64,000 bases of DNA from IMG/VR virus record IMGVR_UViG_3300027804_000049, positions 50,611-114,610 of that record. One strand, given 5' to 3'. The translations under genes were made by a program, and so were the position numbers. The notes beneath the pieces are model-generated. The model was not told where the DNA came from, made no database searches, and was given only the letters and a program-made list of their open reading frames with translations. Shown here piece after piece: positions 19,204 through 55,331 of this stretch. Source of the stretch: a virus. The stretch's first letter is position 1, and the number at the start of each line of letters is the position of its first letter.

Positions 19204-19494
19204 TTACTTATTTTTCTTCTTGGCCTTTTCTTCCTCTGCCTTTAGCATTTGAGCTTCAATTTTAAGAAGAAGAGGAGTAAATAGCCTCGCTAGGGATTCA
19301 ACATCACCTTGGACTTTTGCCTCATTCCGTTTCATGCGGCGAACACCTTTTTGTGCCGCGGTAATGAGTGGGCTGTCATGTACTACACCGTATAGTGGCA
19401 CTATGACCACCTCCTCTCGTTCTGATGGGTTAATTATATCATCAGAAGGGGGGTCTTGTAAACCCCCCTCGAGAGGAGGCTGGTACCAACTCAT
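19204..19494 (-). CDS. Hypothetical protein
   Basis: 96-aa ORF. Confidence 0.55.
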   Translation of the reverse strand: MSWYQPPLEGGLQDPPSDDIINPSEREEVVIVPLYGVVHDSPLITAAQKGVRRMKRNEAKVQGDVESLARLFTPLLLKIEAQMLKAEEEKAKKKNK

Positions 19495-20415: not shown

Positions 20416-20472
20416 TGATCCTCCGTAATCGTCCTTAGGAAAAACTATAATCCTTTTTCCTACGTTTGTAAA

Positions 20473-20748
20473 CTATTGAATCGGGTGAACTACGCCAAGG
20501 AGCGTTTGGTTCGCGGCAGATGCCTTGTTGAACTCTTTTTCCGCCATGTGGTCATAGGTTGCCGCGATAAGAATAGCAGGAAGACAGAAGGCTATTAGCC
20601 CAGTCATTGATGCAAGGAAGTGAATCCAAGATCCACCTACCGCAAGCACTACCATCGCAATTGCCCATAATCCTGACATTACCTTAAGTGAGAACGAGAT
20701 ACGACGGAATTGAAATCCGCGTCTACGAAGTTCCTTTGCTGTTTTCAT
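20473..20748 (-). CDS. Membrane protein
   Basis: Two hydrophobic helices; AAGGAG RBS. Confidence 0.65.
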   Translation of the reverse strand: MKTAKELRRRGFQFRRISFSLKVMSGLWAIAMVVLAVGGSWIHFLASMTGLIAFCLPAILIAATYDHMAEKEFNKASAANQTLLGVVHPIQ

Positions 20749-20758
20749 TTTTATCTCC

Positions 20759-20920
20759 TTAGTTTAGAGTTGCGATTCCAATAATTGTGCAAAGAACAAC
20801 TGCAAGAAGTGCAGGCCATGGGCCGCTTGCTAGATTCTCATCTGCCGAGTCTTTAATGTTACCTAAAAAATCTGAAACTTCATCCATGCAATTACCGAAG
20901 AAATCTGATACTGAGTTCAT
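20759..20920 (-). CDS. Small membrane protein (53 aa)
   Basis: MNSVSDFFGNCMDEVSDFLGN..PALLAVVLCTIIGIATLN; GAAAGGGG RBS downstream of cassette promoter. Confidence 0.6.
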   Translation of the reverse strand: MNSVSDFFGNCMDEVSDFLGNIKDSADENLASGPWPALLAVVLCTIIGIATLN

Positions 20921-21000
20921 TTTGAGCCCCTTTCGTGAGCTTGTCGTTGGTACTATTATATCAGGAAGATCCCGGATATTGGCTATATCCGACTAATATT

Positions 21001-21069
21001 TTAGAATTTACAGCCAGGACAATCAGAGCGTAGGCAGTCACCGCATATTACTTTATTGTCTTTTTCCAT
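21001..21069 (-). CDS. 22-aa CxxC-CxxC microprotein
   Basis: MEKDNKVICGDCLRSDCPGCKF with its own promoter (21091) and RBS GAAAGGGA. Confidence 0.6.
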   Translation of the reverse strand: MEKDNKVICGDCLRSDCPGCKF

Positions 21070-21116
21070 TTTAGTCCCTTTCCTGAGCTTGGTACTATTA
21101 TATCAGGTAGGTCAGG

Positions 21117-21243
21117 AAAATAAAGGAAGCCAGGTGGGAATGGGACCACCTGGCTCCTTGGAAAGGGTGTCTACAACTTGAACGAATTGGAGGTACGTCC
21201 AAGGAGACCCTTGGCATAAGGTATGAACGGACCTTTGCCAAGT
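21117..21243 (-). ncRNA. Candidate small structured RNA ending in intrinsic terminator
   Basis: Promoter variant at 21245-21260; stems CTTGGCA/TGCCAAG and CTCCTTGGA/TCCAAGGAG; terminator 21125-21157 plus U tract. Confidence 0.5.
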
Positions 21244-21255
21244 AGGATAATTATA

Positions 21256-22188
21256 TCATACCCACGAGAATAAACGAACCTCTTCATAGACCGTACCTAC
21301 AACCTCGCTCCAAATTTGCGGTGTGTGGTCAAAAGGTTGATACCCACCAGCTCCTCCGATGAGGACTCGGCCTTGAGCATATGTGTTGGCAATTTGACCT
21401 ACGACCTTAGCCGCATACTTGTATCCAGGGTAATCGAAGTTAAGGGTTGACAACGGATCTGAAATGTGAGCATCAGCTCCAGTAGCCAACAACACAACAT
21501 CTGGTTGGATCTTGTGTGATAGCTCAGCAACTTGATCTACCGCATCGCGAAATGCATCATCACCGGAGCCTGGATCTAACGCCCAGTTATAAATACCGAA
21601 CGAAGGCTTATGTCCATCAAGACCTGTACCTGGAAAAATCACAGAGTCGTGAATCGAGCATGTAACAATATCTCTTGAGCTGGCAAGTAGATTCTCAACG
21701 CCATCACCATGATGCGCATCCCAGTCGATATACATAACCTTCATGCCATTACGATGAAATTCCTTTGCAGCCCAAGCCATGTCGTTAAACACGCAAAATC
21801 CTGAGCTGTGATTACGTTGAGCATGGTGCTTAGCTCCCTGAGGATTAAAGCCAACCTTTAAGTCACCCGCAAGCATTTTTTCTGTAAGACGAACTGTTCC
21901 GGCAAACATGTGTAATGCGACCTTACCCTTGTGGGTATCGTCTGGTCTCCATTCACCGCAATGCCCAAGGTCAAGAACCTTTGAAACATATTCCTTATCG
22001 TGAATGGACTCTACGTGAGCTCTATCCGTATCAAGGATGTCTGGTTTTATAATGACGACGTCGTGGTTTTCCTGCAACATCTGTGTTGCATACTTTGCAC
22101 GAACCGGATTTGTTGGATGCTCGAAATCTGAGCTACCAAGTTTCCAATCAAGATACACATCGTCGTATGAGATATGTAGCTTAGTCAT
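21256..22188 (-). CDS. Zn-dependent histone deacetylase family (AcuC-like) deacetylase
   Basis: GAKHHA..SGFCVFND, IDWDAHHGDG, SIH..FPGTG, GADAH..DPL, GGY. Confidence 0.92.
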   Translation of the reverse strand: MTKLHISYDDVYLDWKLGSSDFEHPTNPVRAKYATQMLQENHDVVIIKPDILDTDRAHVESIHDKEYVSKVLDLGHCGEWRPDDTHKGKVALHMFAGTVRLTEKMLAGDLKVGFNPQGAKHHAQRNHSSGFCVFNDMAWAAKEFHRNGMKVMYIDWDAHHGDGVENLLASSRDIVTCSIHDSVIFPGTGLDGHKPSFGIYNWALDPGSGDDAFRDAVDQVAELSHKIQPDVVLLATGADAHISDPLSTLNFDYPGYKYAAKVVGQIANTYAQGRVLIGGAGGYQPFDHTPQIWSEVVGTVYEEVRLFSWV

Positions 22189-22693
22189 TTAACTTCAACT
22201 CCCTTAGATATTTCTCAAAGCTTTGATTTATCAAGACAGCGCTTGAACGCTTTGTCCGCATTAGCTCAATAGCTTGCTCAGCTGTATAGCCTTCAAGCAT
22301 GAGAACAATTCCCATAGTTAAGCCAGATCTATTGATTCCAGCTTGACATCTAACAAGAACATTCTTGCCAGACTTCCACTGTTCGTGTGCATATTTAGCC
22401 GCACGCATTAGTGTAGCCTCATCAAAGCTGGAGTTGTCATCGTAAAATCCGTAACGAACTTCCTCGACAAACCAGTCAACTGGTCGTGCCCATGCATAGA
22501 GCGTGACGACTACCTCGAAATCGTTTTTTGTTATTGCACGAGGACCTAATGTGTTGGCCTCGTAATCAATCGTGTCAAAATCATCTGTTCCACCAAGCCA
22601 AAGCCCTGAAAGGATCTCGCTCCATAGAGGAAAGTTCCAGTCAATTTCGTGCTGCGGTGCAGCACCAAGTTCCTCTGTACTGTAAGTTGCCAT
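22181..22693 (-). CDS. Dual-specificity protein phosphatase
   Basis: P-loop VRCQAGINRSG; GLWLG. True start near 22693/22699 after GAAAGGA; the ORF-track extension runs through the tRNA. Confidence 0.88.
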   Translation of the reverse strand: MATYSTEELGAAPQHEIDWNFPLWSEILSGLWLGGTDDFDTIDYEANTLGPRAITKNDFEVVVTLYAWARPVDWFVEEVRYGFYDDNSSFDEATLMRAAKYAHEQWKSGKNVLVRCQAGINRSGLTMGIVLMLEGYTAEQAIELMRTKRSSAVLINQSFEKYLRELKLND

Positions 22694-22771
22694 TGTCATG
22701 CGTCCTTTCGAATCGGTGGGACAGGGTCCCCATAGGTCTATTATATCAGGTTTGTAAACAACTCTAAAACA

Positions 22772-22847
22772 TGGAGCGGACGACGGGGGTCGAACCCGCG
22801 ACCTGAACCTTGGCAAGGTTCCGCGCTACCAACTGCGCTACGTCCGC
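22772..22847 (-). tRNA. tRNA-Gly(GCC)
   Basis: GCGGACGTAGCGCAGTTGGTAGCGCGGAACCTTGCCAAGGTTCAGGTCGCGGGTTCGACCCCCGTCGTCCGCTCCA; full cloverleaf, encoded CCA. Confidence 0.97.
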
Positions 22848-23410
22848 TAGAACTTCTGGGACTTTATAACGATAGGTTCAGCTGAGTAAATATCCCACTT
22901 GATTGCAGCAGCTATCGCTTTTTTAATATTCTCTTCTGCTTGTTTCAGTGTCTTTGCTGGACCTAGAATCTCTAGAGCTCCAAGCACAACGTCTCCTCCT
23001 GAACCACCGTAATAAACATTACGAACATCTCTGTCCCAAGAGTAGTCTTCGAAAATCGGATATATGACACCACGCACTGCAACTAAAAACATTGAGTCAT
23101 GAGCTGCCGCATCTCCGTCCTCCTTCATGTCATAACCAGCTTCAATAAAAGCTCGCCGCATCTCTGGAACAAACTTTTTAGTCATAAAGGAATCTAAGTT
23201 TTCTGCGCTGTTCGGTGGTTTTGGTGGAGTCCAGCCAAACTGAAGAATGTTAGATCCACGACTTGCACCAGCTCCAGCAATTAGGTATGGTCCGTTTTCG
23301 ATGACCTTATGAGTTGCCATAGTTGTGTATCGACCTGACTCTTCAGAAGCTCTAGAGTCGCATCCAATAACACACCAACCATTGCCTTGAATCGCGGCAA
23401 GCGTAGTCAT
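22847..23410 (-). CDS. Ntn-hydrolase, proteasome beta/HslV-like peptidase
   Basis: N-terminal MTTL nucleophile Thr, DSRAS, conserved K, GSGG, DIYS. Confidence 0.8.
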   Translation of the reverse strand: MTTLAAIQGNGWCVIGCDSRASEESGRYTTMATHKVIENGPYLIAGAGASRGSNILQFGWTPPKPPNSAENLDSFMTKKFVPEMRRAFIEAGYDMKEDGDAAAHDSMFLVAVRGVIYPIFEDYSWDRDVRNVYYGGSGGDVVLGALEILGPAKTLKQAEENIKKAIAAAIKWDIYSAEPIVIKSQKF

Positions 23411-23481
23411 ATTTCTCCCCCAGGGTAGTGGCCTTACGCCTGGGCAAATGTATACCAGGCGCTTGGGCTACGTCTAAAATA

Positions 23482-23814
23482 TTATGCTGGGTCGATTATA
23501 CCGAGTGGCACAGTCACATTTGATGACTGAACCTCGCCATTAGGAAGATATCTTGCGAATCTTCCCATAGGTGTCTCGAGTCTTACCACTACTTTTGTGC
23601 GGTTTTTCGAGATTACAGTTGCATACTGCCCAACCATGTACCGCGTACCTGTAAGTTCATTAAACTTAACTCTATCACCAACGCCAAAGTCGGCAATGGT
23701 ACGAACATTCCTTACTGTCTTACGGCGGTCTTCAATAGCCTTTGCGATACTTTCGAGGTCAGCATCAAACTGCCCTTCGGCAATACTCGCAAGTAGGGTT
23801 GTCTTTGTTTCCAT
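23482..23814 (-). CDS. Hypothetical protein with SH3/KOW-like C-terminus
   Basis: FGVGDRVKF..ATVISKNRTKVVV; cassette promoter and AGGAGG. Confidence 0.7.
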   Translation of the reverse strand: METKTTLLASIAEGQFDADLESIAKAIEDRRKTVRNVRTIADFGVGDRVKFNELTGTRYMVGQYATVISKNRTKVVVRLETPMGRFARYLPNGEVQSSNVTVPLGIIDPA

Positions 23815-23849
23815 ATTGTTCCCCTCCTTTTGGGTAGGGTACTATTATA

Positions 23850-24032
23850 TCATACTTTTGACAGGAATGTAACATCTCCGGGGTAGAATCTTTTCCCGTG
23901 AAGGTCATCAACCAGCTTTAAGGCAAGAGCTACCGCTGCTGTCTCACTGGAACTGATGACCTCGAGTTCACGAGTATCGTCACTTGTGTTTCTAGCGTTA
24001 AGCCTTACCTTGTATCGGTAAGCTTTTGGCAT
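23850..24032 (-). CDS. Hypothetical protein
   Basis: 60 aa, coupled to upstream gene; TGA lies inside the promoter motif. Confidence 0.6.
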   Translation of the reverse strand: MPKAYRYKVRLNARNTSDDTRELEVISSSETAAVALALKLVDDLHGKRFYPGDVTFLSKV

Positions 24033-24277
24033 TAGGCATCAACCTCAGCTTTGAGGTATTGAATCCCTTCAGACTTTTGTGCCTCGTCTTGTTCCCACGG
24101 CAAACGTGTTCTATCAATATCAAGTAAGCTGTTGGTAAACATTACCGCAGTCTTCTTTGCAGCGCCCAATGTTGTATGGGCAGCATAACGTTCCTCGCCT
24201 GATGCGAGATCCTTTACCTTTACGAGCCACGCGGATTGCGGAGCTTTATTTTTGAGTAGAGTTGCTACTACACTCAT
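24032..24277 (-). CDS. Hypothetical protein
   Basis: 81 aa, promoter at 24311, GAGGA RBS. Confidence 0.65.
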   Translation of the reverse strand: MSVVATLLKNKAPQSAWLVKVKDLASGEERYAAHTTLGAAKKTAVMFTNSLLDIDRTRLPWEQDEAQKSEGIQYLKAEVDA

Positions 24278-24314
24278 CGTTTCCTCTTTTCTTTGTCTTT
24301 GTGTTATAAACCTA

Positions 24315-24632
24315 TTATATCAGGTCTTCGTCATCATCCGAATTAGAGCGAGATCGTACCTCTTCCTGTTGGTCCCACATCTCTTGGCGAAGAGCACGTT
24401 CGTACTCATCACCGCGATACGAGTTAGAACCAAAGGAGATGTCCTCATCTTGATGAAGCTTATCTAAGCTAAGAACCGCGGTGTGTCCTGAAGCTGCAAA
24501 CATGATTACGAGCTTTACGTCACCTTCGTTTGCATCATCAACTAAAGCTACCGCAAAGGGAAGTCCTGCGACACCATTGCGATGATAAGCTAGATCAAGT
24601 ATTTGTAATCTATCTGGGTCAACTCTTGTCAC
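24315..24632 (-). CDS. Hypothetical protein
   Basis: YHRNGVAG..FGSNSYRGD; stop inside the promoter motif. Confidence 0.7.
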   Translation of the reverse strand: MTRVDPDRLQILDLAYHRNGVAGLPFAVALVDDANEGDVKLVIMFAASGHTAVLSLDKLHQDEDISFGSNSYRGDEYERALRQEMWDQQEEVRSRSNSDDDEDLI

Positions 24633-24790
24633 GAGGCTTTCCTTTCAGCAGTACTTGGTCTTTTCTTTGTAATCGTGCAACCTTCAAGCTTTTGTCTTGC
24701 TATCCAGTCCTTAGCTGTTTTCTCATCAGAGAACTGACCTAGCCACTTGTCTCCTTGAAAGACGTTAACGAGTTTGTATAGATTACTCAT
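24629..24790 (-). CDS. Hypothetical 53-aa protein
   Basis: MSNLYKLVNVFQGDKWLGQFSDEKTAKDWI..; 4-nt overlaps both sides. Confidence 0.6.
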   Translation of the reverse strand: MSNLYKLVNVFQGDKWLGQFSDEKTAKDWIARQKLEGCTITKKRPSTAERKAS

Positions 24791-25446
24791 ATCGCAGCTC
24801 GATTCTTTTTAATGATTGGTTTGTAAGACTTACTACTCGCACCAAGAGCTGGAGTCATGTATCCGTATCTTACAAGACGGAAGCGTAGTGCTCCATGAGT
24901 GACGCCAAGCTTCTTAGCAAGATGATAAAGCGTAACCTTTTCCTGGCTATGAACTTTCCAAAGAAGAGCCGCATACTCTTCAGCCTCTTTGCGATATTTC
25001 GGAGAATGACTACGAACAAGTTGCGCAAAGGGTTGAAGCTCAAGTAAGCGAGCTAGACTCTGTGCATCTGGCTCGTAGGGTTCGTATTTGTACTTGATGA
25101 TAGTCTCTGTTGGGAGAGCTGGAATTGGAAATTCCTCAGGGAACATCTTGATTTGCTCAATTAAGTCCTGGCCAATGCTGACGTCGATTTGTCGAATTCG
25201 TTCTCTAGTCAAGTCTGTTGCATCCGCGATTGACTGTAAAGTCCAGCCCGCATGTCGTAGTGCAGCAATGTAGGAATTTCTCACCAAAGCATCACTCTCT
25301 TTCTCTCTGTGAAGAGAGGTGCCAAATGACTTAAGGATAAGTCTAACGTTTTCAGGTAAAACCTGATTGTTTAGTATCGCATGAGTTTCCTCAATGGAAA
25401 CGAGCTTGCTGAAGTCTTTTCGTGTTAGTCTCTGTGTTTGTGTCAT
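24787..25446 (-). CDS. Multi-HTH (sigma70 region 4-like) DNA-binding protein
   Basis: GWTLQSIADATDLTRERIRQI; VTLYHLAKKLGVTHGALRFRL; leaderless after TTTACT-N17-TATAAT. Confidence 0.75.
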   Translation of the reverse strand: MTQTQRLTRKDFSKLVSIEETHAILNNQVLPENVRLILKSFGTSLHREKESDALVRNSYIAALRHAGWTLQSIADATDLTRERIRQIDVSIGQDLIEQIKMFPEEFPIPALPTETIIKYKYEPYEPDAQSLARLLELQPFAQLVRSHSPKYRKEAEEYAALLWKVHSQEKVTLYHLAKKLGVTHGALRFRLVRYGYMTPALGASSKSYKPIIKKNRAAI

Positions 25447-25523
25447 GGATATATTATATCATACTTTCTTTAGAAAGTAAAATGAAGCTGGGCCACTTCT
25501 CCTTAGCCCAGCTCCAAGTGGTA

Positions 25524-25799
25524 CTACTTCTTAGGGAACTTCTTTTGTCCGCGTCTGATTGCAGACATGGTCGTTGAAGCTTCCTTTGTAGTGTTTACCT
25601 GAATCTTCTCACCTGTGGAGGTATTGAAGATCAGATAGTGTGAGCTATCCACCGCACGTAAAACCGCAAGGGTCTTACGCTTACGGAAGTAAGCTGGCTT
25701 GTAACCATTTGGAAGTTTGACTCCGCGAGCCAAGGGAGGAAGCTGCTCTATGCGAGTTCCAGGCTTGGCACGAGCTGGAGATTTGATCTTCGCAGTCAT
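25524..25799 (-). CDS. Basic hypothetical protein
   Basis: 91 aa; GACGAAAGGA RBS; terminator-like hairpin 25486-25513. Confidence 0.7.
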   Translation of the reverse strand: MTAKIKSPARAKPGTRIEQLPPLARGVKLPNGYKPAYFRKRKTLAVLRAVDSSHYLIFNTSTGEKIQVNTTKEASTTMSAIRRGQKKFPKK

Positions 25800-25880
25800 G
25801 GTGTCCTTTCGTCTTTTATGAGCGCCTTGCTCATACTTGCTTATCTATTATATACAGATAAGGCAAATCTGTAAAATCAG

Positions 25881-26081
25881 TTAGGACAGGGCGAGTGGGT
25901 TACACTCGGGTAGAACGTGAGTTCTCCATTCACGGATAATCCTGTCAAAGGTACCCGTATACCCAAACTCCTTAGCTCGAAGGAGAATGGCGTAGTCCGC
26001 AAGGGACTCAGCCCAAACCTCTTCATGGTCCTTTGAGTTTTGAGCGGAGCAGCTTACGCAGAAATCTTGTTTTGTTTCCAC
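25881..26081 (-). CDS. Hypothetical protein
   Basis: 66-aa ORF. Confidence 0.45.
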   Translation of the reverse strand: METKQDFCVSCSAQNSKDHEEVWAESLADYAILLRAKEFGYTGTFDRIIREWRTHVLPECNPLALS

Positions 26082-26180
26082 GATTGGTCCTTGATCTTTT
26101 GTTGTAGCTCGCGATTTGGCACGAGCGCCAGAAGAACGAGACCGAGCTCTTCCTCGGTAAGTTTAATTGTGTACTCAACA

Positions 26181-26363
26181 TTACTCACTTTGAGCCTCCT
26201 CTAATTCCTTAAGGAATACTTCAATGTCCTTCTTGATGAAGTAGAAAGCATTACCGCATGAGTAGCAATACGCCTCAGTCATAGGGATCTCTCGGCAAAA
26301 TGCGTCGATACCCGAGTGAATCAGGTCGGTGTTTTCGCAACCTTGCACTTGGCATTTTTTCAT
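26181..26363 (-). CDS. Small Cys-rich protein
   Basis: CQVQGC..CYSC; AACGACGAAAGGA RBS. Confidence 0.65.
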   Translation of the reverse strand: MKKCQVQGCENTDLIHSGIDAFCREIPMTEAYCYSCGNAFYFIKKDIEVFLKELEEAQSE

Positions 26364-26472
26364 TTTCGTCCTTTCGTCGTTTGATTTGGCAGCTCAGAGG
26401 ACCTACCGCAGACGACCGCTGTAGTGAGCGATGTTCCGCGTGCCCCTGAACTGTTAGTACTATTATATCAGG

Positions 26473-26685
26473 TTATGGAGTAAACTCTAATACTTTCTTT
26501 GCCCAGCTTGCGAGCTTTGGTTCAAACTTGTTTTTGTGGTGGCCGCATAGGTATAGGTCGCCGGAGTCGCCGGAGATCTTCCAAAGGGCACGGGCAACGC
26601 GGCACGCGTCACATTGGACATACTCAGAGAAGGTCGTTGGCTCCAAAGGAGCCTGAGCTTCAAGCACCGCACCTGTCTCACTCAT
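26473..26685 (-). CDS. Small zinc-binding protein (CxxC..CGHH)
   Basis: CDAC..LYLCGHH; similar to 50410 gene. Confidence 0.65.
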   Translation of the reverse strand: MSETGAVLEAQAPLEPTTFSEYVQCDACRVARALWKISGDSGDLYLCGHHKNKFEPKLASWAKKVLEFTP

Positions 26686-26689
26686 GAGA

Positions 26690-27013
26690 TTACTTTATCA
26701 CGTGAGAGAGATGGTTAAGAGTTTCAGTCACGAGACTTATTGCCTCGAAACTGTTTCCTCCGATATGCCACTCATAAAGCTCACTTAGTCCAGGTCTTCC
26801 GAACTCGTATCGCTTCCAATCGTAGATGGTTGCGATTTCTCCGGAGTCAAATTGGATTATCCACTCTGTGGTGACTTTATCACCCATTGAGAATAACTGT
26901 GGATCTCCGAAAACCTCGGTAAGTTTTTCACGAGTCGTTTGCACGTATCCCTGCAGTGAAGTTCCACTGGCATTGATTTCTGAATCTGCGAAAAAATTAT
27001 CTCCGAACTTCAT
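26690..27013 (-). CDS. Phage hypothetical protein
   Basis: GTSLQGY..VFGDP..DKVTTEW..TIYDWK..WHIGG; start after AAGGAGG. Confidence 0.7.
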   Translation of the reverse strand: MKFGDNFFADSEINASGTSLQGYVQTTREKLTEVFGDPQLFSMGDKVTTEWIIQFDSGEIATIYDWKRYEFGRPGLSELYEWHIGGNSFEAISLVTETLNHLSHVIK

Positions 27014-27023
27014 TTCATCCTCC

Positions 27024-27263
27024 TTAAGCTGAGAAAGCAAGAACGTAACCTTTATCCTGCTTTTCCCAAATTCTTTTGTTAGCGGCAAAGAGTGCTGCTT
27101 GCTCGTTTGAGAAGAGCTCAGTCTTCATTTGGCGATTGCGCTTTTCAGCCATTCCCCAAGATACAGTCATACGATTTTTAATGACTTCGATTTCATACAT
27201 CTTCTTCTTACCAATGAGTCCGCGATTTCCATCGCTCTCTTTTATTAGGCACCAGCGTTTCAT
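27024..27263 (-). CDS. WGR-domain protein
   Basis: KMYEI..VSWG..F..A..EKQDKGY pattern. Confidence 0.65.
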   Translation of the reverse strand: MKRWCLIKESDGNRGLIGKKKMYEIEVIKNRMTVSWGMAEKRNRQMKTELFSNEQAALFAANKRIWEKQDKGYVLAFSA

Positions 27264-27375
27264 TTTATGTCCTTTCGTCGTTTGCGGTGGGTGTTCCGCG
27301 TTAGTACTATTATATCAGGTTTAGAGCGAACTCGTAAACTTTTGTAAGATAAAGGCGCCTTTCGGCGCCCATATC

Positions 27376-27555
27376 TTAAGAATTGCGACTATTTACAAAG
27401 TTAGCAATAACGTCTGTTATCGCATCTTGTAGCGATTCTGTAAGCTCATCAATTTCAGTTTCATTAAGATCAACAGGATTTTCTTCCATATAATCAACCA
27501 TGTCCTGAAGCGCTTCAACTGTTATCGCGTGAACAACTATTTTGCTAGAGTCCAT
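27376..27555 (-). CDS. Acidic 59-aa protein
   Basis: MDSSKIVVHAITVEALQDMVDYMEENP..; own promoter and RBS; GGCGCC-GAAA-GGCGCC hairpin downstream. Confidence 0.65.
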   Translation of the reverse strand: MDSSKIVVHAITVEALQDMVDYMEENPVDLNETEIDELTESLQDAITDVIANFVNSRNS

Positions 27556-27612
27556 TTCCGTTCCTTTCGTCGTTGTAGTACTATTATATCATAATTCTAT
27601 TATAAAGTAAAC

Positions 27613-27660
27613 AAGAAATAAAGAAGCTGGCTACGCGGATCGGAGTACACGTAGCCAGCT
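27613..27660 (-). terminator. Intrinsic terminator
   Basis: AGCTGGCTACG..CGTAGCCAGCT followed on minus by TCTTTATTTCTT. Confidence 0.75.
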
Positions 27661-27670
27661 TTAAAATTAC

Positions 27671-27878
27671 TGGACGAGACAGTTTGCTCACAAAGGGCCT
27701 GATTCGCGCTTCACTTTTTGCGCAATACCACATGTCGATGAAGCTATGCGGTTTTAATCCTAACTTCCCTAAGTTAGTATTGCTCTGTCTTTTTCCTAGA
27801 TCCGGCTCGTCACCGTCAGCTTATCGGGAGTAGTTTCCCCATGGGATACCCTTATGCTCTAAGACCTAGTTAGTCCAT
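27671..27878 (-). ncRNA. Candidate ~210-nt multi-stem ncRNA
   Basis: Lies between a cassette promoter (27880) and a terminator; no credible ORF; at least 6 nested stems. Confidence 0.65.
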
Positions 27879-27939
27879 TGGTACTATTATATCATGCCCG
27901 TCAGGCTTTTAACATCATTTTCCTACAGGCTGGGTTAAA

Positions 27940-28137
27940 TTATTGTTTTGGAGTCTCTTCCCAGTCCGTCAGGTAGCGAGCCTCAAAGTCAGAGGCTGGC
28001 CTTTTGAGTCCAAGCTCCGCCATCTTTAGATAGCGGTCAACGTCTGCTCGCTTGCGGGCTCTGAACTTTGAGATTCTTTCGCCCGTCTTGACATCTATAA
28101 TTTCCCACACGCCTGCTGCAACATTGCGATTACGCAT
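27940..28137 (-). CDS. Hypothetical protein
   Basis: MRNRNVAAGVWEIIDVKTGE..; coupled to DUF3846 stop. Confidence 0.6.
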   Translation of the reverse strand: MRNRNVAAGVWEIIDVKTGERISKFRARKRADVDRYLKMAELGLKRPASDFEARYLTDWEETPKQ

Positions 28138-28480
28138 ACACTTGCCGTCTAACTTTTTCGGCAAACTCCTGGAGCTGCACAACCCAAGCGTGAGAAAGCT
28201 CGATGGTCTCGCCTTCTTCGTCCGTGCCGCCTGTAAATACACAATCGCCTACAATGATATCGGTTTGACCAAATGAGCGTTCCCACATGTGCGTGCTGAT
28301 GATATTCACCGGTAAGCCCATGAGCTTGCCTTCGTCATTACACCAAAGTGTAAGATCTGGCTTCAAGCTTACCGCTTGAATTAGTCCACCTACCGTGCCT
28401 GAAAGCTGATTGTACTCGTCGGTGGAAAGATCAAGTACCTCAGTTGTTAAGTCTGTATTTACCCGTAGCCCTGTTTTCAT
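28130..28480 (-). CDS. DUF3846-like protein
   Basis: VGGLIQAV..WCNDEGKLMGLPVN..IVGDCVFTG. Confidence 0.8.
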   Translation of the reverse strand: MKTGLRVNTDLTTEVLDLSTDEYNQLSGTVGGLIQAVSLKPDLTLWCNDEGKLMGLPVNIISTHMWERSFGQTDIIVGDCVFTGGTDEEGETIELSHAWVVQLQEFAEKVRRQVYA

Positions 28481-28659
28481 TTAGCTAACTCCACTTCTGG
28501 AAACCACTTCAATAAAGTTTGAAGTAGGTGGTCGTAGTCGCCTGCAGTCATTTCCGCAGTGAACGCGGAAACCTCGTCGCGTCGTCCTTGCTTTTCTAGT
28601 TCACGGCGTCCTGCGCCAATTATAGCGAAGGCGTTGCCATCTGTAATGCTAATTGCCAT
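28477..28659 (-). CDS. Phage hypothetical protein
   Basis: DGNAFAIIG..EMTAGDYDHLLQT; ACGAAAGGA RBS. Confidence 0.7.
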   Translation of the reverse strand: MAISITDGNAFAIIGAGRRELEKQGRRDEVSAFTAEMTAGDYDHLLQTLLKWFPEVELAK

Positions 28660-28679
28660 TGGGTGTCCTTTCGTAGATT

Positions 28680-28817
28680 CTAACCCTTGTGCCAACAGGT
28701 GCAGCCGCAAGGAAAAGAGGAGCCATTATTTCTTGGGCAGTAGTCGTGTTCGTCCTCTGTGCAAGAACCGCACTTAGGATGCACTACTGTCTTGCCTTCA
28801 AGTTTAGTTATTTTCAT
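28680..28817 (-). CDS. Leaderless Cys/His-rich microprotein
   Basis: ATG 7 nt after TATAAT; CGSC..H..C..CGCTCWH. Confidence 0.6.
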   Translation of the reverse strand: MKITKLEGKTVVHPKCGSCTEDEHDYCPRNNGSSFPCGCTCWHKG

Positions 28818-28830
28818 AGGTACTATTATA

Positions 28831-29082
28831 TCAGGAAGAGCTTGGATATTGCAGACCTCGTGAAGCAAGTCTTTCGCCAGCTTCGTTTAGTGACGTGATA
28901 ATTTCAAACACGTCCATTCCGGTGTCCCAACTATCAAACATAGAGACTGCTACGTCCCAGTGTTCGTTTGTGTATTCCTCGCCGGTGTTGCTTTCAACGT
29001 CTTCTTTTGTGAACCATTGAATCATAATCTCTGAGTTTGGGTCCTCCTGTTGGAGAGCCGCAAGTACTGTTGATACTTTCAT
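28831..29082 (-). CDS. Hypothetical protein
   Basis: 83 aa; cassette promoter and RBS; stop in next motif. Confidence 0.7.
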   Translation of the reverse strand: MKVSTVLAALQQEDPNSEIMIQWFTKEDVESNTGEEYTNEHWDVAVSMFDSWDTGMDVFEIITSLNEAGERLASRGLQYPSSS

Positions 29083-29132
29083 TGGGTGTCCTTTCGTTGT
29101 CGTTAATAGTCGTTAATACTATTATATCAGGA

Positions 29133-29315
29133 TTATCCTACTTGGAGTAGCTCATTGCACAATCCGCACCAATACGAGTCTCCGAGTGTGCTTGACTCGT
29201 CATACTCATGAAGTATTTCTTCAGTAGGGTGTTTGCAATTTTCAGTAGAGATATGAAGGCAGATACGCTCGCCTCTTATGGCGCATGTCGAACAGACTAT
29301 AAGCATAGTTTCCAC
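29133..29315 (-). CDS. Small Cys-rich protein
   Basis: CSTC..C.H..CKH..CGLC. Confidence 0.55.
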   Translation of the reverse strand: METMLIVCSTCAIRGERICLHISTENCKHPTEEILHEYDESSTLGDSYWCGLCNELLQVG

Positions 29316-29339
29316 CCTTCCGTCGTTGGTACTATTATA

Positions 29340-29540
29340 TCAGGAATCGAGTACACTCGCAAGATCTTCGTAAAGATCTTCAATGACAGTTCCATGCTCC
29401 ATGATGACCTTTTCAAACTTGTCATCCATATCGGAAACCTCATCAGGGAGAATCTTGTTTGATGGCATCACATAGATGACATCTCCTGGAGAAAGAATCC
29501 ACCAGTCACCGTTCTCGTTGGCTACATATAAACTATTCAT
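29340..29540 (-). CDS. Hypothetical acidic protein
   Basis: 66 aa; AGGAG RBS; stop in motif. Confidence 0.65.
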   Translation of the reverse strand: MNSLYVANENGDWWILSPGDVIYVMPSNKILPDEVSDMDDKFEKVIMEHGTVIEDLYEDLASVLDS

Positions 29541-29706
29541 TGTCGTCTCCTAGTGGATACAGATAGTTGCCAAGGTCAATACCGCAACCAGTTTTGATGA
29601 TAATCTCACCGGAGTCGTCTATGACTACAGTCGAGCCGTTGAGTCTTTCATCGACCCATTTCTTGAGATGCTCTAGGGTTTGGATGTCTTCTACCTTGAG
29701 TTCCAT
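29533..29706 (-). CDS. Hypothetical 57-aa protein
   Basis: MELKVEDIQTLEHLKKWVDERLNG..; cassette promoter and RBS. Confidence 0.65.
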   Translation of the reverse strand: MELKVEDIQTLEHLKKWVDERLNGSTVVIDDSGEIIIKTGCGIDLGNYLYPLGDDNE

Positions 29707-29736
29707 GTTTGTCCTTTCGTCGTTGGTACTATTATA

Positions 29737-30642
29737 TCAGGAATTGGAGACTAGATACAGCTTGTCCACGACCTCTTTGAGCGAGATATACGCCTTCCCA
29801 AGGGTTTGGGTCAGGCTGGACACGGTCCCGCCTTGTGAGAGGGACTGAGTGGCCTTCGTTGCCACCGCCACAGCTGAGTTGCTGGTGCCAAGTGTTATGA
29901 GCTTGCGCCCCGTCAAATCCTGGGTCGTCCAGCGCCCGTGAGCATACAGGTCAAGGTCTTGCCCGCCGTTGCTTGATGGCATCACCGGAGTGACCCAACC
30001 GGCCACGCCGCGCATGCTATAACGAACGTCCGTCGCACCTACTGATATAACCTCAGGGGTACAGGCTGGGTAATCGACCTTTACCTTGTTCCCGCCGTTG
30101 CCTGCGGAGGCAACTACCGCGACGCCTGTGCCCGTCAACTTCTTAACTGTTGCCTGGAAGCTAGCCTCGATGGGGCATCCCACATCTGAGTAAGACCGTC
30201 CAACGGAAAGTGATACCGCACCGACGTTGAGTCGGGCCGCATTCGCATCTACCCAGTCCATTGCCTGTTGAACTGATCTCATCGTGTAGCTATTGGCAAA
30301 GCCTTTGGCGGACATGCCGACGATACGTATGAACACAATGCGAACCGTAGGATCAACCTGAACGGCAACCGAATACATCTGAGAACCGTGATGCATAGCT
30401 CTATCCTTCACGTCCTGGTATCTAACGTGAGCTGCACCTGGCCCGTTCATAAACTTTTGTCCATTAGGGCATGTGCCATACTCGATGATACACACTTCCT
30501 CAACGAGAGTTGACTTGACCCAGTCAAGCTCGGTGTTAATTCCAGAGTCGATAATCACCAACGTCTTTTGTGCGTTGGCGCTCGCTGGTGAAATTACAAG
30601 TGCGGCAAGCGATACTACAAGTAGTGCTACTATCTTTTTCAT
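29737..30642 (-). CDS. Secreted subtilisin-like S8 serine protease
   Basis: Signal peptide; IIDSG (Asp), HGSQM (His), SAGN oxyanion, GTSNS (Ser). Confidence 0.85.
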   Translation of the reverse strand: MKKIVALLVVSLAALVISPASANAQKTLVIIDSGINTELDWVKSTLVEEVCIIEYGTCPNGQKFMNGPGAAHVRYQDVKDRAMHHGSQMYSVAVQVDPTVRIVFIRIVGMSAKGFANSYTMRSVQQAMDWVDANAARLNVGAVSLSVGRSYSDVGCPIEASFQATVKKLTGTGVAVVASAGNGGNKVKVDYPACTPEVISVGATDVRYSMRGVAGWVTPVMPSSNGGQDLDLYAHGRWTTQDLTGRKLITLGTSNSAVAVATKATQSLSQGGTVSSLTQTLGKAYISLKEVVDKLYLVSNS

Positions 30643-30715
30643 GATGTCCTTTCGTAGTTAGGTTTAGCTCCGGAGTAGACGCCTTTGACGGAAGGACTGT
30701 CTACTCCGGAAGTTG

Positions 30716-32518
30716 TTAGGCAGCGTTCTTGCTGCCAATCTTTGTAAGTGCGTTTGCCGCAGCAGTACCAATTCTGATTGCCGCGTCTGCAGGATCCATA
30801 ACGTCGGAAAGTAGAACTGCGTTTGTGCCTCGTGTAAGGTCCATTGCGTCATGCAGATATGGACTCTTACAAAATGGTAACCACAGAACTGCAACACCTT
30901 TGTCATCGCATTCCTTAAGCCAATGCTTAGCGTGTTCAGTCTCAACGGAAGTGTAGCGCGCGTCACTTACTACTACGAGCAAGCGTGCACCATTTCCATA
31001 GAGTAAGTTTAAAGAACCATCAAGTGCCTTAAACGCCTTATCGAACTTCTCAGTTGAATCAGGCGCAGTGTACACATTGATTTGATCAAGATGTTGTCCT
31101 GGCTTTAGAGTAGGAAATACATCCTGCCCAAAGTAAACCATTGCCGCACGAGCTTGAACTCGACGTGCTGCCTCTGACATTGCCCAGGCAGTGACTGCCA
31201 TAGGGTTCATAGCACTGCCCATTGAACCTGAGATATCAACCATGACGCCAACAGTAAGTGTTGGGTCATCAGTGTGCTTGCGCACAGTGCGACGCCATGG
31301 ATTGGCTGCCTGCATTGAACCTTGAGCTTTATACGCAGCATTTTGTACAATGGCACGAGTGCGTAAACGTCCAGGTGGAAGTATGGACTGAATCTCGTGT
31401 TCATCACGCTCACGATACTTTGCCTTCTCAAGCATCTGTGCAATCTTGACTGCGGCAGCTCTTTCCTTTGCCTCAGGTTTACGAATCTTCTCAAGACGAG
31501 AGTTGCTGCCATTAGTGTTGCCTGCCTCAGAAGTATCCTTGAATATCTCATCTGCGACCTTCTTGTGCTCACGATCTTGGCGGGCAGCCTTTGTGCGAAC
31601 TTCAACTTCTTCTTTCCACTCTTCAGACTGCTGTTGATCCTGAGCGTCATCTGCTACAGCAATGGCAATCGTGTCAATTGCATCTTCGATTTCCTTGATG
31701 ATCTCTGAAAGTACTGCGATAATCATTTTTACATCTGCTTTTGAAGGAGCGTCAAGTTCCTCGCCGCGTTCCTTTGCAAGGTCACGTAGAATCTGATCCC
31801 ACTCACGAGCAAGATCATATAAAGGTAGAGGGTTAAGCGCATTTTCAATACCTTGAAAGCGACGCCATACACTTTGCAACTTTTCAAATGTATCCGCACC
31901 TAGAAAGTCAATGACAACTGTGTTGATGCCAACGACATCATCTGCGTCAAGTGAACCTGCGTCAACGCGGGCGCTGATAAGAGCAGAGATAAGGGCAATA
32001 GATCTAATAGTGTCTGCCTTCTCGATATTTTCACTTATGTCGTGAAGTACAAGATCAAGCACCATAGAGCGAATGAAAATTCTATTCATTGGAAAGTTAG
32101 TGACGCCAAGGCGCTCAATGCGAGATTCCTCGAGAGACATGAAGGCATTAAACTCATGAGGAGTTAATTCCTTACTCGCCATTGACAAGTCCATCTTTGA
32201 GTAGCGAGCGTGCAGTGCCTCATGAAAGATAGCACCTGCTGCCTTTGGCCAATCAAAGAGTGAATCGCGATCTGAAAGATCACCTATCATTGAAGGGATA
32301 ACACCCTTACCAAATGCTAAGTCAACATTAACCTCGACTTCAGCTAAAGCTGGATTGTAGCATGCAGGGGCTGGACCTCCAGCGCCTGGGCCTACGTATG
32401 CCACAACGTCAGAGCGTCCTGCCCATGTGTTTACCAAGGAGCCAATCTGAGCTCCAAGGGGTAGCCACTCTGGTGGCGTTTGTTTCGCGCGGGTCGCGGA
32501 TACCTTTATGTGTCCCAT
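30716..32518 (-). CDS. vWA domain protein with N-terminal HExxH (CobT/CbbO-like)
   Basis: HEALH..LEESRIE; MIDAS VDISGSM, T, VVSD. Confidence 0.85.
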   Translation of the reverse strand: MGHIKVSATRAKQTPPEWLPLGAQIGSLVNTWAGRSDVVAYVGPGAGGPAPACYNPALAEVEVNVDLAFGKGVIPSMIGDLSDRDSLFDWPKAAGAIFHEALHARYSKMDLSMASKELTPHEFNAFMSLEESRIERLGVTNFPMNRIFIRSMVLDLVLHDISENIEKADTIRSIALISALISARVDAGSLDADDVVGINTVVIDFLGADTFEKLQSVWRRFQGIENALNPLPLYDLAREWDQILRDLAKERGEELDAPSKADVKMIIAVLSEIIKEIEDAIDTIAIAVADDAQDQQQSEEWKEEVEVRTKAARQDREHKKVADEIFKDTSEAGNTNGSNSRLEKIRKPEAKERAAAVKIAQMLEKAKYRERDEHEIQSILPPGRLRTRAIVQNAAYKAQGSMQAANPWRRTVRKHTDDPTLTVGVMVDISGSMGSAMNPMAVTAWAMSEAARRVQARAAMVYFGQDVFPTLKPGQHLDQINVYTAPDSTEKFDKAFKALDGSLNLLYGNGARLLVVVSDARYTSVETEHAKHWLKECDDKGVAVLWLPFCKSPYLHDAMDLTRGTNAVLLSDVMDPADAAIRIGTAAANALTKIGSKNAA

Positions 32519-32612
32519 AGTTTGTCCTTCCGTCAGTAGGTACTATTATATCAGGAAATGGAGGAGGTCCCTGACACCCATGACAGGGACCTCACTCTTC
32601 ACGCCAAGGGGA

Positions 32613-33608
32613 TTAGATCTTGGCTGGTCGGCACTCTTCACCGAACACCCTGGTGAACACATCCGCAACGACGGGGCGGTCGAGTTCAGGTGCTGCAGCG
32701 ATGATGTTCGCAATAGCGAACTTAGTGCCGAAGGTTTTTGAGATATCGCGGAACGCGAGTAGCTCACGCATTTGTGGTGCCCAACCACATTCACCAGATT
32801 GTTGGCGACGTGATAGGTTTTGAGCAACTACAACTATCTGTTGTGGCGCTCCAAGCTTTTTAGCAAGCATGAAGTCAGTTGACATCTCAACTTGAAGTAC
32901 GAAGCGAGATAGTAAAGCTTCTGAAAGTCTTACTCCAGGAGCATTTGGATTTGTAGCAGCGATGACATAGAAGCCTTCCTTGGCTTTGATGGTACCGCGC
33001 TCTGGATTGGCAGTGATAGTTAACTCATTAGTTCCATCCATAAGTGAATAGACACCGGAGAGAACCTTTGGATCAATGAGACCAATCTCATCAATGAACA
33101 GTGGGCGACCTTCCTCGGCAGCTTTGACAAGTGGACCATCGACCCACTCGAATCCACCTGAAGGAGTTTGGACGTATCCACCAATGAAGTCTGCAAGTTC
33201 AGCATCACCTGTACCAAGTACAGAGATTACATTTGAAAACGCTGCTTGCACAAGTGCAGTCTTACCACAACCTGGAGCACCATAAAGCAAGACGAATTGC
33301 ATCTCTTGATGCGCCTTACGTAGAACTTGCACGTCATCGTGCTCACCCCACTTGCGGGCATGATACTTCTCGCCATTAGGGCGAATGTATGTCTCGTCAC
33401 CGACGAGTGCATCTGCTGACACTACAGGGACCACTTTCTTGGCTGCCGCACGAACGATAACCTTACCCTGAGGTGCAACCATTGATTTAAGTTCAGAGGA
33501 CAGATCCTCATGGAGATTCTGACCTGCTGCCTTTAAGAATAAATCGCTAAGTTTAGGTGACGCGCCTGGCGCCATCGAATCTAGCTTATCTAATACTATT
33601 GTTGACAT
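32613..33608 (-). CDS. MoxR-family AAA+ ATPase (CbbQ/NorQ/CobS-like)
   Basis: GAPGCGKT, WVDGPL, FIDE, AATNP, LSEALLSRF. Confidence 0.9.
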   Translation of the reverse strand: MSTIVLDKLDSMAPGASPKLSDLFLKAAGQNLHEDLSSELKSMVAPQGKVIVRAAAKKVVPVVSADALVGDETYIRPNGEKYHARKWGEHDDVQVLRKAHQEMQFVLLYGAPGCGKTALVQAAFSNVISVLGTGDAELADFIGGYVQTPSGGFEWVDGPLVKAAEEGRPLFIDEIGLIDPKVLSGVYSLMDGTNELTITANPERGTIKAKEGFYVIAATNPNAPGVRLSEALLSRFVLQVEMSTDFMLAKKLGAPQQIVVVAQNLSRRQQSGECGWAPQMRELLAFRDISKTFGTKFAIANIIAAAPELDRPVVADVFTRVFGEECRPAKI

Positions 33609-33635
33609 GTGGGTGTTTTCCTTTCGTCGTTGTTG

Positions 33636-34091
33636 TTAAGCGAATAACTTATCGCCGAAGCCTAAGGCTTTGCGAACACGGGTGATGCGACCTAGAACCT
33701 TGTAAGGGGTTCTTGAGTTGCGGATGTCTTCAAGATCTGCCAGTGATACCTCAACCACAAGTGGCTGCTTGAACAGCTTATAACTGTGACTATCAAGACG
33801 TGAGACTATAGTCTCAAGAAATGCTAGGCGAGATTCTGTAACTGATTTAGTATCCTCAAGAGAATACTTTTTGAAGTTTCCAAATTCATCCTTTGCAAGA
33901 ACTGGAAGCGCATATGTCTTCCACCCCCTACGCGGGTGAAGGCTGGAAATTTGGCGGCGATACATCGTAGCGGGTACGTTGCGACCATCGCTGGTAAGCC
34001 CATCTGGAGTTAGAAGCATTTGGTACGTTTGAACACCAAGGCGAAACTCCATGTATAAGGCACTACCTATAACCTTGTCTTTATCCAACAT
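33636..34091 (-). CDS. Hypothetical protein
   Basis: 151 aa; cassette promoter and RBS. Confidence 0.7.
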   Translation of the reverse strand: MLDKDKVIGSALYMEFRLGVQTYQMLLTPDGLTSDGRNVPATMYRRQISSLHPRRGWKTYALPVLAKDEFGNFKKYSLEDTKSVTESRLAFLETIVSRLDSHSYKLFKQPLVVEVSLADLEDIRNSRTPYKVLGRITRVRKALGFGDKLFA

Positions 34092-34144
34092 GGGTGTATC
34101 CTTTCGTCGTTTGAAGTACTATTATATCAGGTAAATCTTTAGAG

Positions 34145-34223
34145 ATACGCAGGGGACCGGAATTGTTTCCGACCCTCTAGAGTCTTAAGTCGTTCAGGTG
34201 ACCACCGGGTCGACCCTGCGTAT
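34145..34223 (-). ncRNA. Candidate ~80-nt multi-hairpin RNA
   Basis: Starts right after the 34224 promoter; 10-bp closing stem ATACGCAGGG/CCCTGCGTAT enclosing three hairpins. Confidence 0.55.
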
Positions 34224-34281
34224 AGTACTATTATATCAGGCTAGAGTGCGCTCGTTTACCATACTACCTGATATAATAGTA
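34224..34281. promoter_or_regulatory. Back-to-back divergent cassette promoters
   Basis: AGTACTATTATATCAGG (leftward) and CCTGATATAATAGTA (rightward) 26 nt apart. Confidence 0.8.
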
Positions 34282-34335
34282 TTACGGGAAACCAACCGGC
34301 CAACCGAAGACACAGAGACGAAGGGTAGGGACCAA

Positions 34336-34668
34336 ATGTCCAGCACCGCAATTCGTACCACAGTGACCGAGGTCACTGTTACAAAGACAGTGCGCCACCT
34401 TAATAAGAGCGTGGATGCAACTGTCAAGGCGTTTGCCAAAACCAAAGAGGACTTGAAAGTTCTCGAGGCACAGAAGAAAGCTCTTGAAGAGCAGATTCGC
34501 AATTTGATGGACGGCGCTTCAGTCGGATACATTGATGGAGTAAAGCGTGTTGAGATTCTTGACCGCAAGCTCACCAAGGTCGACCGCAAGAAGCTTCAGG
34601 AAGCTTATCCAGAAGCATACGAGGCGACTCTTAAAACAACTGAATATACAATTGTTGACGCTGAATAA
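34336..34668 (+). CDS. Coiled-coil phage protein (resembles YqaJ C-terminal-like region)
   Basis: Start after the inverted promoter; VDRKKLQEAYPEAY. Confidence 0.65.
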   Translation: MSSTAIRTTVTEVTVTKTVRHLNKSVDATVKAFAKTKEDLKVLEAQKKALEEQIRNLMDGASVGYIDGVKRVEILDRKLTKVDRKKLQEAYPEAYEATLKTTEYTIVDAE

Positions 34669-34682
34669 TCTCAGCTAAAACT

Positions 34683-34718
34683 AAGAGACCCCTGGCGAAA
34701 GCCAGGGGTTTTCTTTTT
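34683..34718 (+). terminator. Intrinsic terminator
   Basis: ACCCCTGGC-GAAA-GCCAGGGGT followed by TTTCTTTTT. Confidence 0.85.
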
Positions 34719-34723
34719 ACTTC

Positions 34724-34948
34724 TTACTCTCCGGGGTTTATAACACCTGACGCGCAATCAAGACAGACAAGCCAAACGTCTTCTTCGTCTTCAATGCAGA
34801 TAACGCAGGGAAAGAACTTTCGCATTTCAAACCCAACCGCAACATCACAATTAGCGCACTGCGCATCAATTAGAAACTCTGACAATCCTTCAGAGCCAGT
34901 TGCACGCACTGCATCTGGAGTCTCCGCTACGTATAGCTCAATTGCCAT
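34724..34948 (-). CDS. Small zinc-binding protein
   Basis: CANC..CLDC. Confidence 0.6.
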   Translation of the reverse strand: MAIELYVAETPDAVRATGSEGLSEFLIDAQCANCDVAVGFEMRKFFPCVICIEDEEDVWLVCLDCASGVINPGE

Positions 34949-35660: not shown

Positions 35661-35843
35661 GAGATCAATTATAACAGGAAAGGTGCTCAAAACTCGGCAA
35701 GGCTAAAAGATGTTTTAGGGGTTTTGGAGGCTTTAGCCCGGAGACTTCTTAATTCTTACACAGAAGTAAATTTTTGCAACTTGCAAAAATTCTACAGGCC
35801 ATTTTGACAAAAGTACAATTACGGAACAAAACGGACACTGCAG

Positions 35844-54019: not shown

Positions 54020-54307
54020 CTATCTTATATCTTTATTTTTTACCGAGTTTCTCATGCGCCGAATTCTTGACCTTTCGCGCTCGGTAGTTCCTCCCCAAAT
54101 GCCTAACTCCTTGTTTTCAATAGCCCACTCACGACAAGCTCCAATAAGCATACAGGACTCACATACCTTTTTGGCGGTATCAGTCTCCCAACGAGCGGAT
54201 CCTCTTTCTAGAAAAAATGCCTCTGGATCTGTGCTCGCACAATTTGGAGTTCCGGTGTTAAAGAACGTAGGGTACCTAGTTGATATTTTTATGTCTAATG
54301 ATTCCAT
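54020..54307 (-). CDS. whiB: WhiB-family transcription factor
   Basis: C..DPEAFF..AKKVCESC....C..GIWGGTTERER. Confidence 0.93.
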   Translation of the reverse strand: MESLDIKISTRYPTFFNTGTPNCASTDPEAFFLERGSARWETDTAKKVCESCMLIGACREWAIENKELGIWGGTTERERSRIRRMRNSVKNKDIR

Positions 54308-55040: not shown

Positions 55041-55331
55041 CTAATGTAACTTTATTCTCAACAAAGAGCGTCTTTGATCTTCGGTAGTCGCGCCCCACAC
55101 GCCATAAATCTCTGGAACCTTTAATGCGTGTTCAAGACATTTATCAACTACAGGGCATCTCTTGCAAATACTTACTGCCTTTCGTTCCTTTTTTCTTTTG
55201 GTTGTAGATCTTTCTCCATGCTCTAAAAAGAAAATGCTAGGATCCATCTTTGCGCACTCACCTTGATTTTGCCACTCCCACTCTTCTATAATTGGAGATA
55301 ATAAAGGTGGCTTGCGACTCGAGTAACTCAC
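55041..55331 (-). CDS. whiB: WhiB-family transcription factor (WhiB3-like)
   Basis: WEWQNQGEC..IFF..CKRCPVVDKCLEHAL..YGVWG. Confidence 0.92.
   Translation of the reverse strand: MSYSSRKPPLLSPIIEEWEWQNQGECAKMDPSIFFLEHGERSTTKRKKERKAVSICKRCPVVDKCLEHALKVPEIYGVWGATTEDQRRSLLRIKLH

Follow-up and report, generated by a model that had tools for sequence, protein, structure and literature searches.

The DNA considered here is a stretch of 64,000 nucleotides (nt), hereafter the window, corresponding to positions 50611–114610 of the 114.6-kb IMG/VR phage record IMGVR_UViG_3300027804_000049, which is estimated to be 89% complete; coordinates are window positions unless another locus (L0xx, G001 or genome) is named. 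Between nt 19433 and 35676 it contains what is probably the early small-gene region of a 115–130-kb phage of freshwater actinobacteria. In this region, 21 copies of one predicted promoter head about 45 small genes on the minus strand and one divergent gene on the plus strand, in units of one to six small open reading frames (ORFs) or an RNA. Judged from their sequence, the repeats are consecutive promoters of the extended −10 type that have no −35 element in common.

The 16-mer CCTGATATAATAGTAC was found in the window in 10 exact copies, rising to 13 with up to one mismatch and to 16 with up to two, against a chance expectation of 0.05, and none of 100 shuffles reached the observed count. Its core, TGATATAATAG, is present in 17 exact copies, all within nt 20953–34279, and the functional core TGnTATAAT in 21 (about two expected), all inside nt 19433–35676, 20 of them on the minus strand and the remaining one (nt 34269) on the plus strand, separated by 109 bp to 2.8 kb. 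Only two further copies of TGnTATAAT occur in the other 98 kb of the record, so that 21 of the 23 lie within 16 kb; the full 16-mer was found nowhere in the record outside the array, where the only repeated words detected were coding repeats and no other regulatory ones. These counts bear out a preliminary description of the locus, which had noted some 18–20 copies, all but one co-oriented, 0.1–2.8 kb apart and missing from the rest of the window (the two additional copies lie beyond it). The span then assigned, nt 20949–34281, covers a genuine array that is in fact wider, and the modules do precede small genes or RNAs as described, but with up to six ORFs per unit rather than one to three.

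The conserved block extends from −17 to −2 and consists of CC (−17/−16), TG, one base, TATAAT and the discriminator AGTAC. Most copies lack a common −35 hexamer, and a strong hairpin lies within 70 nt upstream of only six of the 21 promoters. The entire block falls inside the contact footprint of the RNA polymerase holoenzyme, CC and the discriminator included, thus contradicting the earlier suggestion that CC and AGTAC are conserved beyond what the sigma factor needs.

A second repeated element, the leader AACGACGAAAGGA, is confined to the array, where six exact copies lie, every one on the minus strand (13-mer class, six versus none elsewhere). About ten promoters are followed, 10–60 nt downstream, by this leader or a variant of it differing at one or two bases, with an ATG 4–7 nt later. 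With ACGAAAGGA plus a start codon counted 10 times in the 16.3-kb array versus twice in the remaining 98 kb, the leader is specific to the array, whereas plain AAGGA and GGAGG sites are used throughout the record. With the 3' end of actinobacterial 16S rRNA (...CCUCCUUUCU), only the GAAAGGA portion of the leader can pair, and the conserved AACGAC cannot. In the WGR-domain gene a small hairpin is located between promoter and ribosome site, an arrangement seen in about 18 loci; the letters of its stem vary among relatives yet stay complementary, and the promoter is in each genome's own version.

At three promoters, 35668 (230 amino acids, aa), 28825 (45 aa) and 25453 (219 aa), the ATG lies 6–7 nt past the −10, and these units would yield leaderless mRNAs, the transcript beginning at the start codon. 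Two of these layouts recur in relatives although the discriminator differs, thus giving indirect support to a start site about 7 nt past the motif. The first of these genes, g00 (35660 region), lacks a leader in this phage, L009, L010 and L018 but has one with the ribosome-site module in L011–L017, a natural example of one gene changing between expression with and without a leader (compared in L011, L013, L014 and L017). Three or four promoters (27886, 34230, 21250) are predicted to drive ORF-less RNAs; homologues of the transcript of about 255 nt, which has its own promoter and terminator, were recognisable only in L009 and L010, and there only over the first 180 nt.

The predicted transcript of promoter 34230 opens with a 79-nt structured RNA, for which a covariance model was built from eight copies. 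The search with this model gave 16 copies in 13 related loci, each beginning a few bases past a −10, with the leader module and unrelated genes downstream in some cases and a terminator in others. Compensatory changes were observed in 14 of 21 base pairs, 88.8% of cells were paired versus 39–51% with the partners slid, and the core GGUGGUCACCUGAACG ... GGGUCGGAAACAAU was invariant among the first eight copies. An Rfam search of the array RNAs, at gathering scores or with E up to 1, explained the tRNA-Gly alone and gave no match for the 79-nt RNA. Covariation thus identifies the element as a new conserved 5' RNA motif and, because unrelated genes or a terminator lie downstream, it appears to behave as a movable leader or small-RNA module. 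A hammerhead-like reading (CUGA...GAAA) was rejected, since only two stems, flanking an internal loop, are predicted instead of three, and Rfam gave no hit.

A query with the array ATPase retrieved 142 IMG/VR loci, 80 of which were kept. Nearly all related loci carry a comparable array, in which the repeated word differs by lineage. Version CCTGATATAATAGTAC is used by this phage, L009, L010, L020–23, L027 and L028; other lineages have CCTGATATAATTAAC, CCTGATATAATTATCCTA, TCTAAAG-N4-5-TATAAT, GGGAYTGTATAAT or TCCAGAGTTTATATAAT, and more distant loci have ordinary TTGACA-N17-TAnnnT promoters. Actinomycetia phage DSL-LC01, a lake metagenome genome, has an array of its own with TTCTAAAGATGTTATAAT and ACGACGAAAGGACA; promoters are not mentioned in the DSL-LC01 paper, a literature search on actinophage promoter arrays retrieved nothing relevant, and no such array surrounds the ATPase of the cultured, distant Microbacterium phage Pumpernickel. 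The spacer between the ATPase and the 600-aa gene contains a hairpin, a promoter and a ribosome site in every genome, the promoter always in that genome's own version, a rule also followed by the g02 promoter and by that of the WGR gene, g15; the leader module is common to different promoter versions. On a quick ATPase tree, promoter versions clustered, with 18 changes where shuffled labels gave 38. AGTAC occupies three or more positions on this tree, but the well-supported branches need no more than one origin of that version, and on a tree of this kind its repeated origin is not secure.

Gene content was compared by BLAST chaining of twelve pairs of close relatives. Breakpoints coincided with a promoter module at 26 of 64 left and 28 of 66 right boundaries, against 3.3 ± 1.8 and 3.0 ± 1.7, respectively, expected for random positions. 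Among 29 pure indels of at least 100 bp, 12–13 consist of an insert between two promoter/leader modules where the relative has one module, with 10–55 nt of shared sequence at the joints (examples in Table 1). One module in L010 is chimeric, joining the upstream flank and TGT of the left L009 module to the discriminator and leader of the right L009 module, and L010 is without the 255-bp cassette that separates these two modules in L009. Among more distant relatives, 93 of 640 homologue placements were out of order, almost always with orientation kept, and the core (151-aa gene, ATPase and 600-aa gene) was always collinear. Set against one and the same relative, the 16.6-kb array resolved into 13 main blocks with at least 10 indels or replacements, and the 19.4-kb structural block had about three such changes, so that indels and replacements in the array are about 3–4 times those of the structural block.

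Table 1. Predicted promoters and units of the array, followed by joints, further copies of the structured RNA and WhiB-like genes.
Feature	Position	Strand	Downstream content or remark
Promoter TGTTATAAT	35663..35678	−	ATG 7 nt past −10; leaderless 230-aa gene 35660–34968 (g00); TGT variant kept at the same gene in many relatives
Sole plus-strand promoter	34267..34282	+	110-aa gene 34336–34668; unit running to bidirectional terminator 34685–34712
Promoter 34230	34225..34240	−	Transcript opens with the 79-nt structured RNA
Conserved structured RNA, model R1	34143..34221	−	At predicted transcript 5' end
Promoter + leader	34116..34131	−	151-aa gene 34091–33636; AAA ATPase 33608–32613
Hairpin 32566–32600 + promoter	32540..32555	−	600-aa gene 32518–30716; S8 subtilase-like gene 30642–29737; positional orthologue in nearly all relatives
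Promoter + AACGACGAAAGGA leader	29726..29741	−	Two small genes
Promoter + leader variant	29329..29344	−	One small cysteine-rich gene
Promoter + duplicated leader	29116..29131	−	83-aa gene; 145 extra bp in L009 and L010, ending 3 nt ahead of the promoter
Promoter 28825	28820..28835	−	ATG 7 nt past −10; leaderless 45-aa cysteine-rich gene, then three genes including DUF3846; leaderless layout kept in L009 and L019
Promoter 27886	27881..27896	−	ORF-less transcript of ~255 nt, 27879 to ~27620, terminator at end
Terminator hairpin + promoter + leader	27578..27593	−	59-aa gene, then terminator 27353–27370
Promoter + gene-specific leader hairpin + leader module	27304..27319	−	WGR-domain gene 27263–27024; two more genes
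WGR leader hairpin	27264..27303	−	Between promoter and ribosome site
Promoter with 90-nt leader	26457..26472	−	Four small genes
Terminator + promoter 25453	25448..25463	−	ATG 6 nt past −10; leaderless 219-aa gene 24787–25446, weak Sigma70_r4 match
Promoter variant, discriminator AGGTT	24309..24324	−	Two small genes
Promoter	23839..23854	−	110-aa gene; HslV-like peptidase 23410–22847; tRNA-Gly 22772–22847
Promoter	22735..22750	−	Dual-specificity phosphatase-like gene 22699–22181; histone-deacetylase-family gene 22188–21256
Promoter variant 21250, TATCCT discriminator	21245..21260	−	Unit of ~140 nt, ending at terminator 21126–21157
Terminator + promoter	21092..21107	−	22-aa cysteine-rich ORF
Promoter	20950..20965	−	About six small genes in a run to ~19200
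Last array promoter, TAACCC discriminator	19428..19443	−	TTTACA at −35, hairpin upstream; beyond the span first described
Joint	34098–34131		L009 with +189-bp cassette
Joint	27283–27306		L009 with +344 bp
Joint	26477–26481		L009 with +549 bp
Joint, leader module	26360–26383		L010 with +411-bp cassette
Other copies of the 79-nt RNA	L009:9163–9241; L022:5224–5301; L018:3258–3334; L026:9021–9098 and 17858–17935; L011:13961–14040		Further copies exist
WhiB-like gene	54065..54247	−	
WhiB-like gene	55062..55274	−	
WhiB-like gene	genome 18089..18286	−	

Most cargo genes are without a family match; the matches obtained include, besides those in Table 1, a DUF7455 protein, and the homologue of the 600-aa gene in DSL-LC01 is annotated as 'cobalamin biosynthesis protein'. 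The phosphatase-like and histone-deacetylase-family genes overlap under one promoter. No paralogues were found among the array proteins, hence unequal crossing-over has not duplicated cargo here. Outside the array, comparison of window nt 10537–10585 with G001:50180–52532 showed that this close relative has about 2.3 kb extra within the region of a 1729-aa head-module gene.

A nucleotide search with the 15-kb array gave no match in 50,697 phage records, and relatives were recovered at the protein level only. The array ATPase shares 72% identity with that of DSL-LC01 and 42–51% with those of Microbacterium and Gordonia phages, and the records nearest to the phage are likewise actinophages (DSL-LC01, Microbacterium and Gordonia phages). 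The record encodes three WhiB-like genes, a family matched only by Corynebacterium among 14 control genomes. Since these actinophages are its nearest records and the phage combines three WhiB genes with predicted leaderless starts and −35-less promoters, its host is probably a freshwater actinobacterium, and a low-GC freshwater lineage is likely because the GC content of the phage is about 45%.

The explanation we favour, with a probability of about 0.65, is that successive promoters for the host sigma factor, provided with a standard leader, express small genes, probably early ones, and that their modules also serve as recombination homology. The region would be cut into about 21 short transcription units, each transcribed from the same promoter by polymerase carrying the host primary sigma factor and starting about 7 nt past the −10. 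The transcripts would carry either an unstructured leader (AACGACGAAAGGA, 4–7 nt, ATG) or a cargo-specific structured leader plus the module, or would be leaderless (AUG at +1), with terminator hairpins behind about a third of the promoters insulating the units. By analogy, identical modules of 16–50 nt may offer the homology through which general recombination deletes, inserts and moves cassettes, as proposed for the promoter-early stem-loops (PeSLs) of T4-type phages. The immediate-early host-takeover role put forward in the preliminary description is conjectural.

The main rival is that the repeats are promoters and nothing more, their uniformity reflecting selection for the strongest promoter for the host polymerase and the module-flanked indels being ordinary gene-boundary mosaicism. 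Several observations weigh against our preferred explanation, and most of them suit this rival. About 45% of array gene starts are directly preceded by a promoter, and the share of breakpoints at promoters (about 40–50%) is similar; therefore there is no clear excess over a gene-boundary null, and most of the pattern could come from selection that keeps viable joints at the boundaries of genes. Many indels suit such mosaicism, several of them breaking at ATGA start/stop overlaps without a module, and the TGT variant of the g00 promoter persists across lineages at its position, which argues against wholesale homogenisation of the modules. Neither RecT nor RecA was found in the 89%-complete record, and we infer promoter use, start sites and timing from the sequence. 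The confinement of the conserved positions to the polymerase footprint is equally what promoters alone would give. Three observations, on the other hand, are at odds with promoters alone, namely the crossover of the chimeric module inside the promoter core, the 10–55 nt shared at the 12–13 joints, and an array several times more plastic than the structural block. On balance we consider this rival rather unlikely. The earlier proposal that units are gained, lost and shuffled at the motif is therefore upheld by the module-flanked indels, the chimera and the shuffled gene order, and the comparison of relatives that it called for did place many breakpoints at the module; what is not upheld is a preference of breakpoints for the motif over gene boundaries, given how many gene starts carry a promoter anyway. 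A special recombination role of the motif is likely but not proven.

More tentatively, and with a low chance of being right, tuning to the host might not be the only reason why each genome has a uniform promoter version: inter-module conversion or a trans-acting protein dedicated to this task could maintain it. If so, the versions would be a compatibility code, with cassettes moving freely only between phages of the same version, and they would belong to a modular expression kit of which the leader module and the 79-nt 5' RNA are additional exchangeable parts.

It is improbable that the 16-nt block is at the same time an operator, resembling the stoperators of Cluster A mycobacteriophages, at which a protein of the phage or the host would shut off the early units, with versions tracking the specificity of that protein. 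The uniform, lineage-own versions, found also at orthologous positions, would fit an operator, as would the fixed upstream box TCTAAAG of some versions, for which no sigma contact is known, and the leaderless array protein with a weak Sigma70_r4/HTH match. The latter, of 219 aa, matches Sigma70_r4 at 24.5 bits versus a cut-off of 24.1 and is a candidate regulator for switching away from the array promoters. However, no regulator has been identified, the block has no dyad symmetry, its variable positions are the ones known to tune open-complex formation, and in distant relatives the motif turns into plain −35/−10 promoters. An integron-like system or another one that moves cassettes site-specifically, or promoters read by a polymerase or sigma factor that the phage encodes, are barely credible and were rejected: the repeated, co-oriented layout is the sole point in their favour, whereas no tyrosine integrase (PF00589), sigma region 2 or T7-type RNA polymerase was found in the 89%-complete record, each cassette has its own promoter, and the motif is a canonical bacterial extended −10.

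PeSLs and the start-associated sequences (SASs) of mycobacteriophages had been named as analogues, and both proved the right comparisons, the former for the flanking modules and the chimera, the latter for a repeat containing a Shine-Dalgarno sequence before gene starts. PeSLs of the T4-type phages RB49/phi1, T4/PST and KVP40/nt-1 resemble the modules described here in that a single strong promoter of host type is present many times, the copies ending with a ribosome site and a start codon (PMC2839356, PMC4122927); excised mini-circles are a further feature of PeSL cassettes. Here about ten promoters have this 3' end, a Shine-Dalgarno sequence with a start codon, three units being leaderless and three or four driving an RNA. 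In both systems the copies are concentrated in a plastic region with small genes of unknown function, and genes that differ between close relatives sit between two copies where the other genome has one chimeric copy. On the contrary, a stem-loop is part of each PeSL module and accompanies only six of 21 copies here, the promoters here are extended −10 elements without a −35 or an AT-rich upstream element, some units are leaderless, and the carriers are not T4-type myoviruses but, as the actinophage neighbours and WhiB genes indicate, an unrelated phage group with hosts of another phylum.

SASs of Cluster K mycobacteriophages have the consensus GGGATAGGAGCCC (PMC3203893). The leader resembles them in being a 13-nt asymmetric repeat a few nt (3–7 bp) before the starts of unrelated genes, with a Shine-Dalgarno core and conserved bases unable to pair with 16S rRNA, confined to the non-structural part, in one orientation and common to sub-lineages. 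It differs from them in sequence (AACGACGAAAGGA versus GGGATAGGAGCCC), in the unrelatedness of the phages, in its usual coupling to a promoter 10–60 nt upstream and in the absence of ESAS-type inverted repeats. The array belongs to neither the PeSL nor the SAS family, given that most copies lack the stem-loop, that its sequences are different and that its carriers are not related to those phages. Early promoter families of lytic phages such as T4, T5 and SPO1 are clusters of near-consensus host-sigma promoters before small early genes; the motif described here differs in being nearly invariant over 16 nt and in having its own version in each related lineage. Stoperators of Cluster A mycobacteriophages are asymmetric repeats bound by a repressor, whereas here promoter function explains the motif. 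The likeness to an integrase-free integron, also suggested at first, goes no further than a one-directional row of small gene cassettes: integrons have IntI, attC and a shared Pc, and here there is a promoter per cassette and no attC-like site, with no tyrosine integrase found in the 89%-complete record.

Gain, loss and reordering of genes at promoter copies are already known for T4-type phages and are not a new mechanism. The array extends the PeSL idea, that regulatory repeats are seams of gene shuffling, to a large family of uncultured freshwater actinophages with a different promoter architecture. It also provides a natural series of about 140 genomes in which the same promoter position has drifted among −35/−10, box-plus-−10 and pure extended −10 forms, a series that could help to infer the promoter preferences of uncultured lake actinobacteria and could guide the design of strong promoter and leader parts for actinobacteria.

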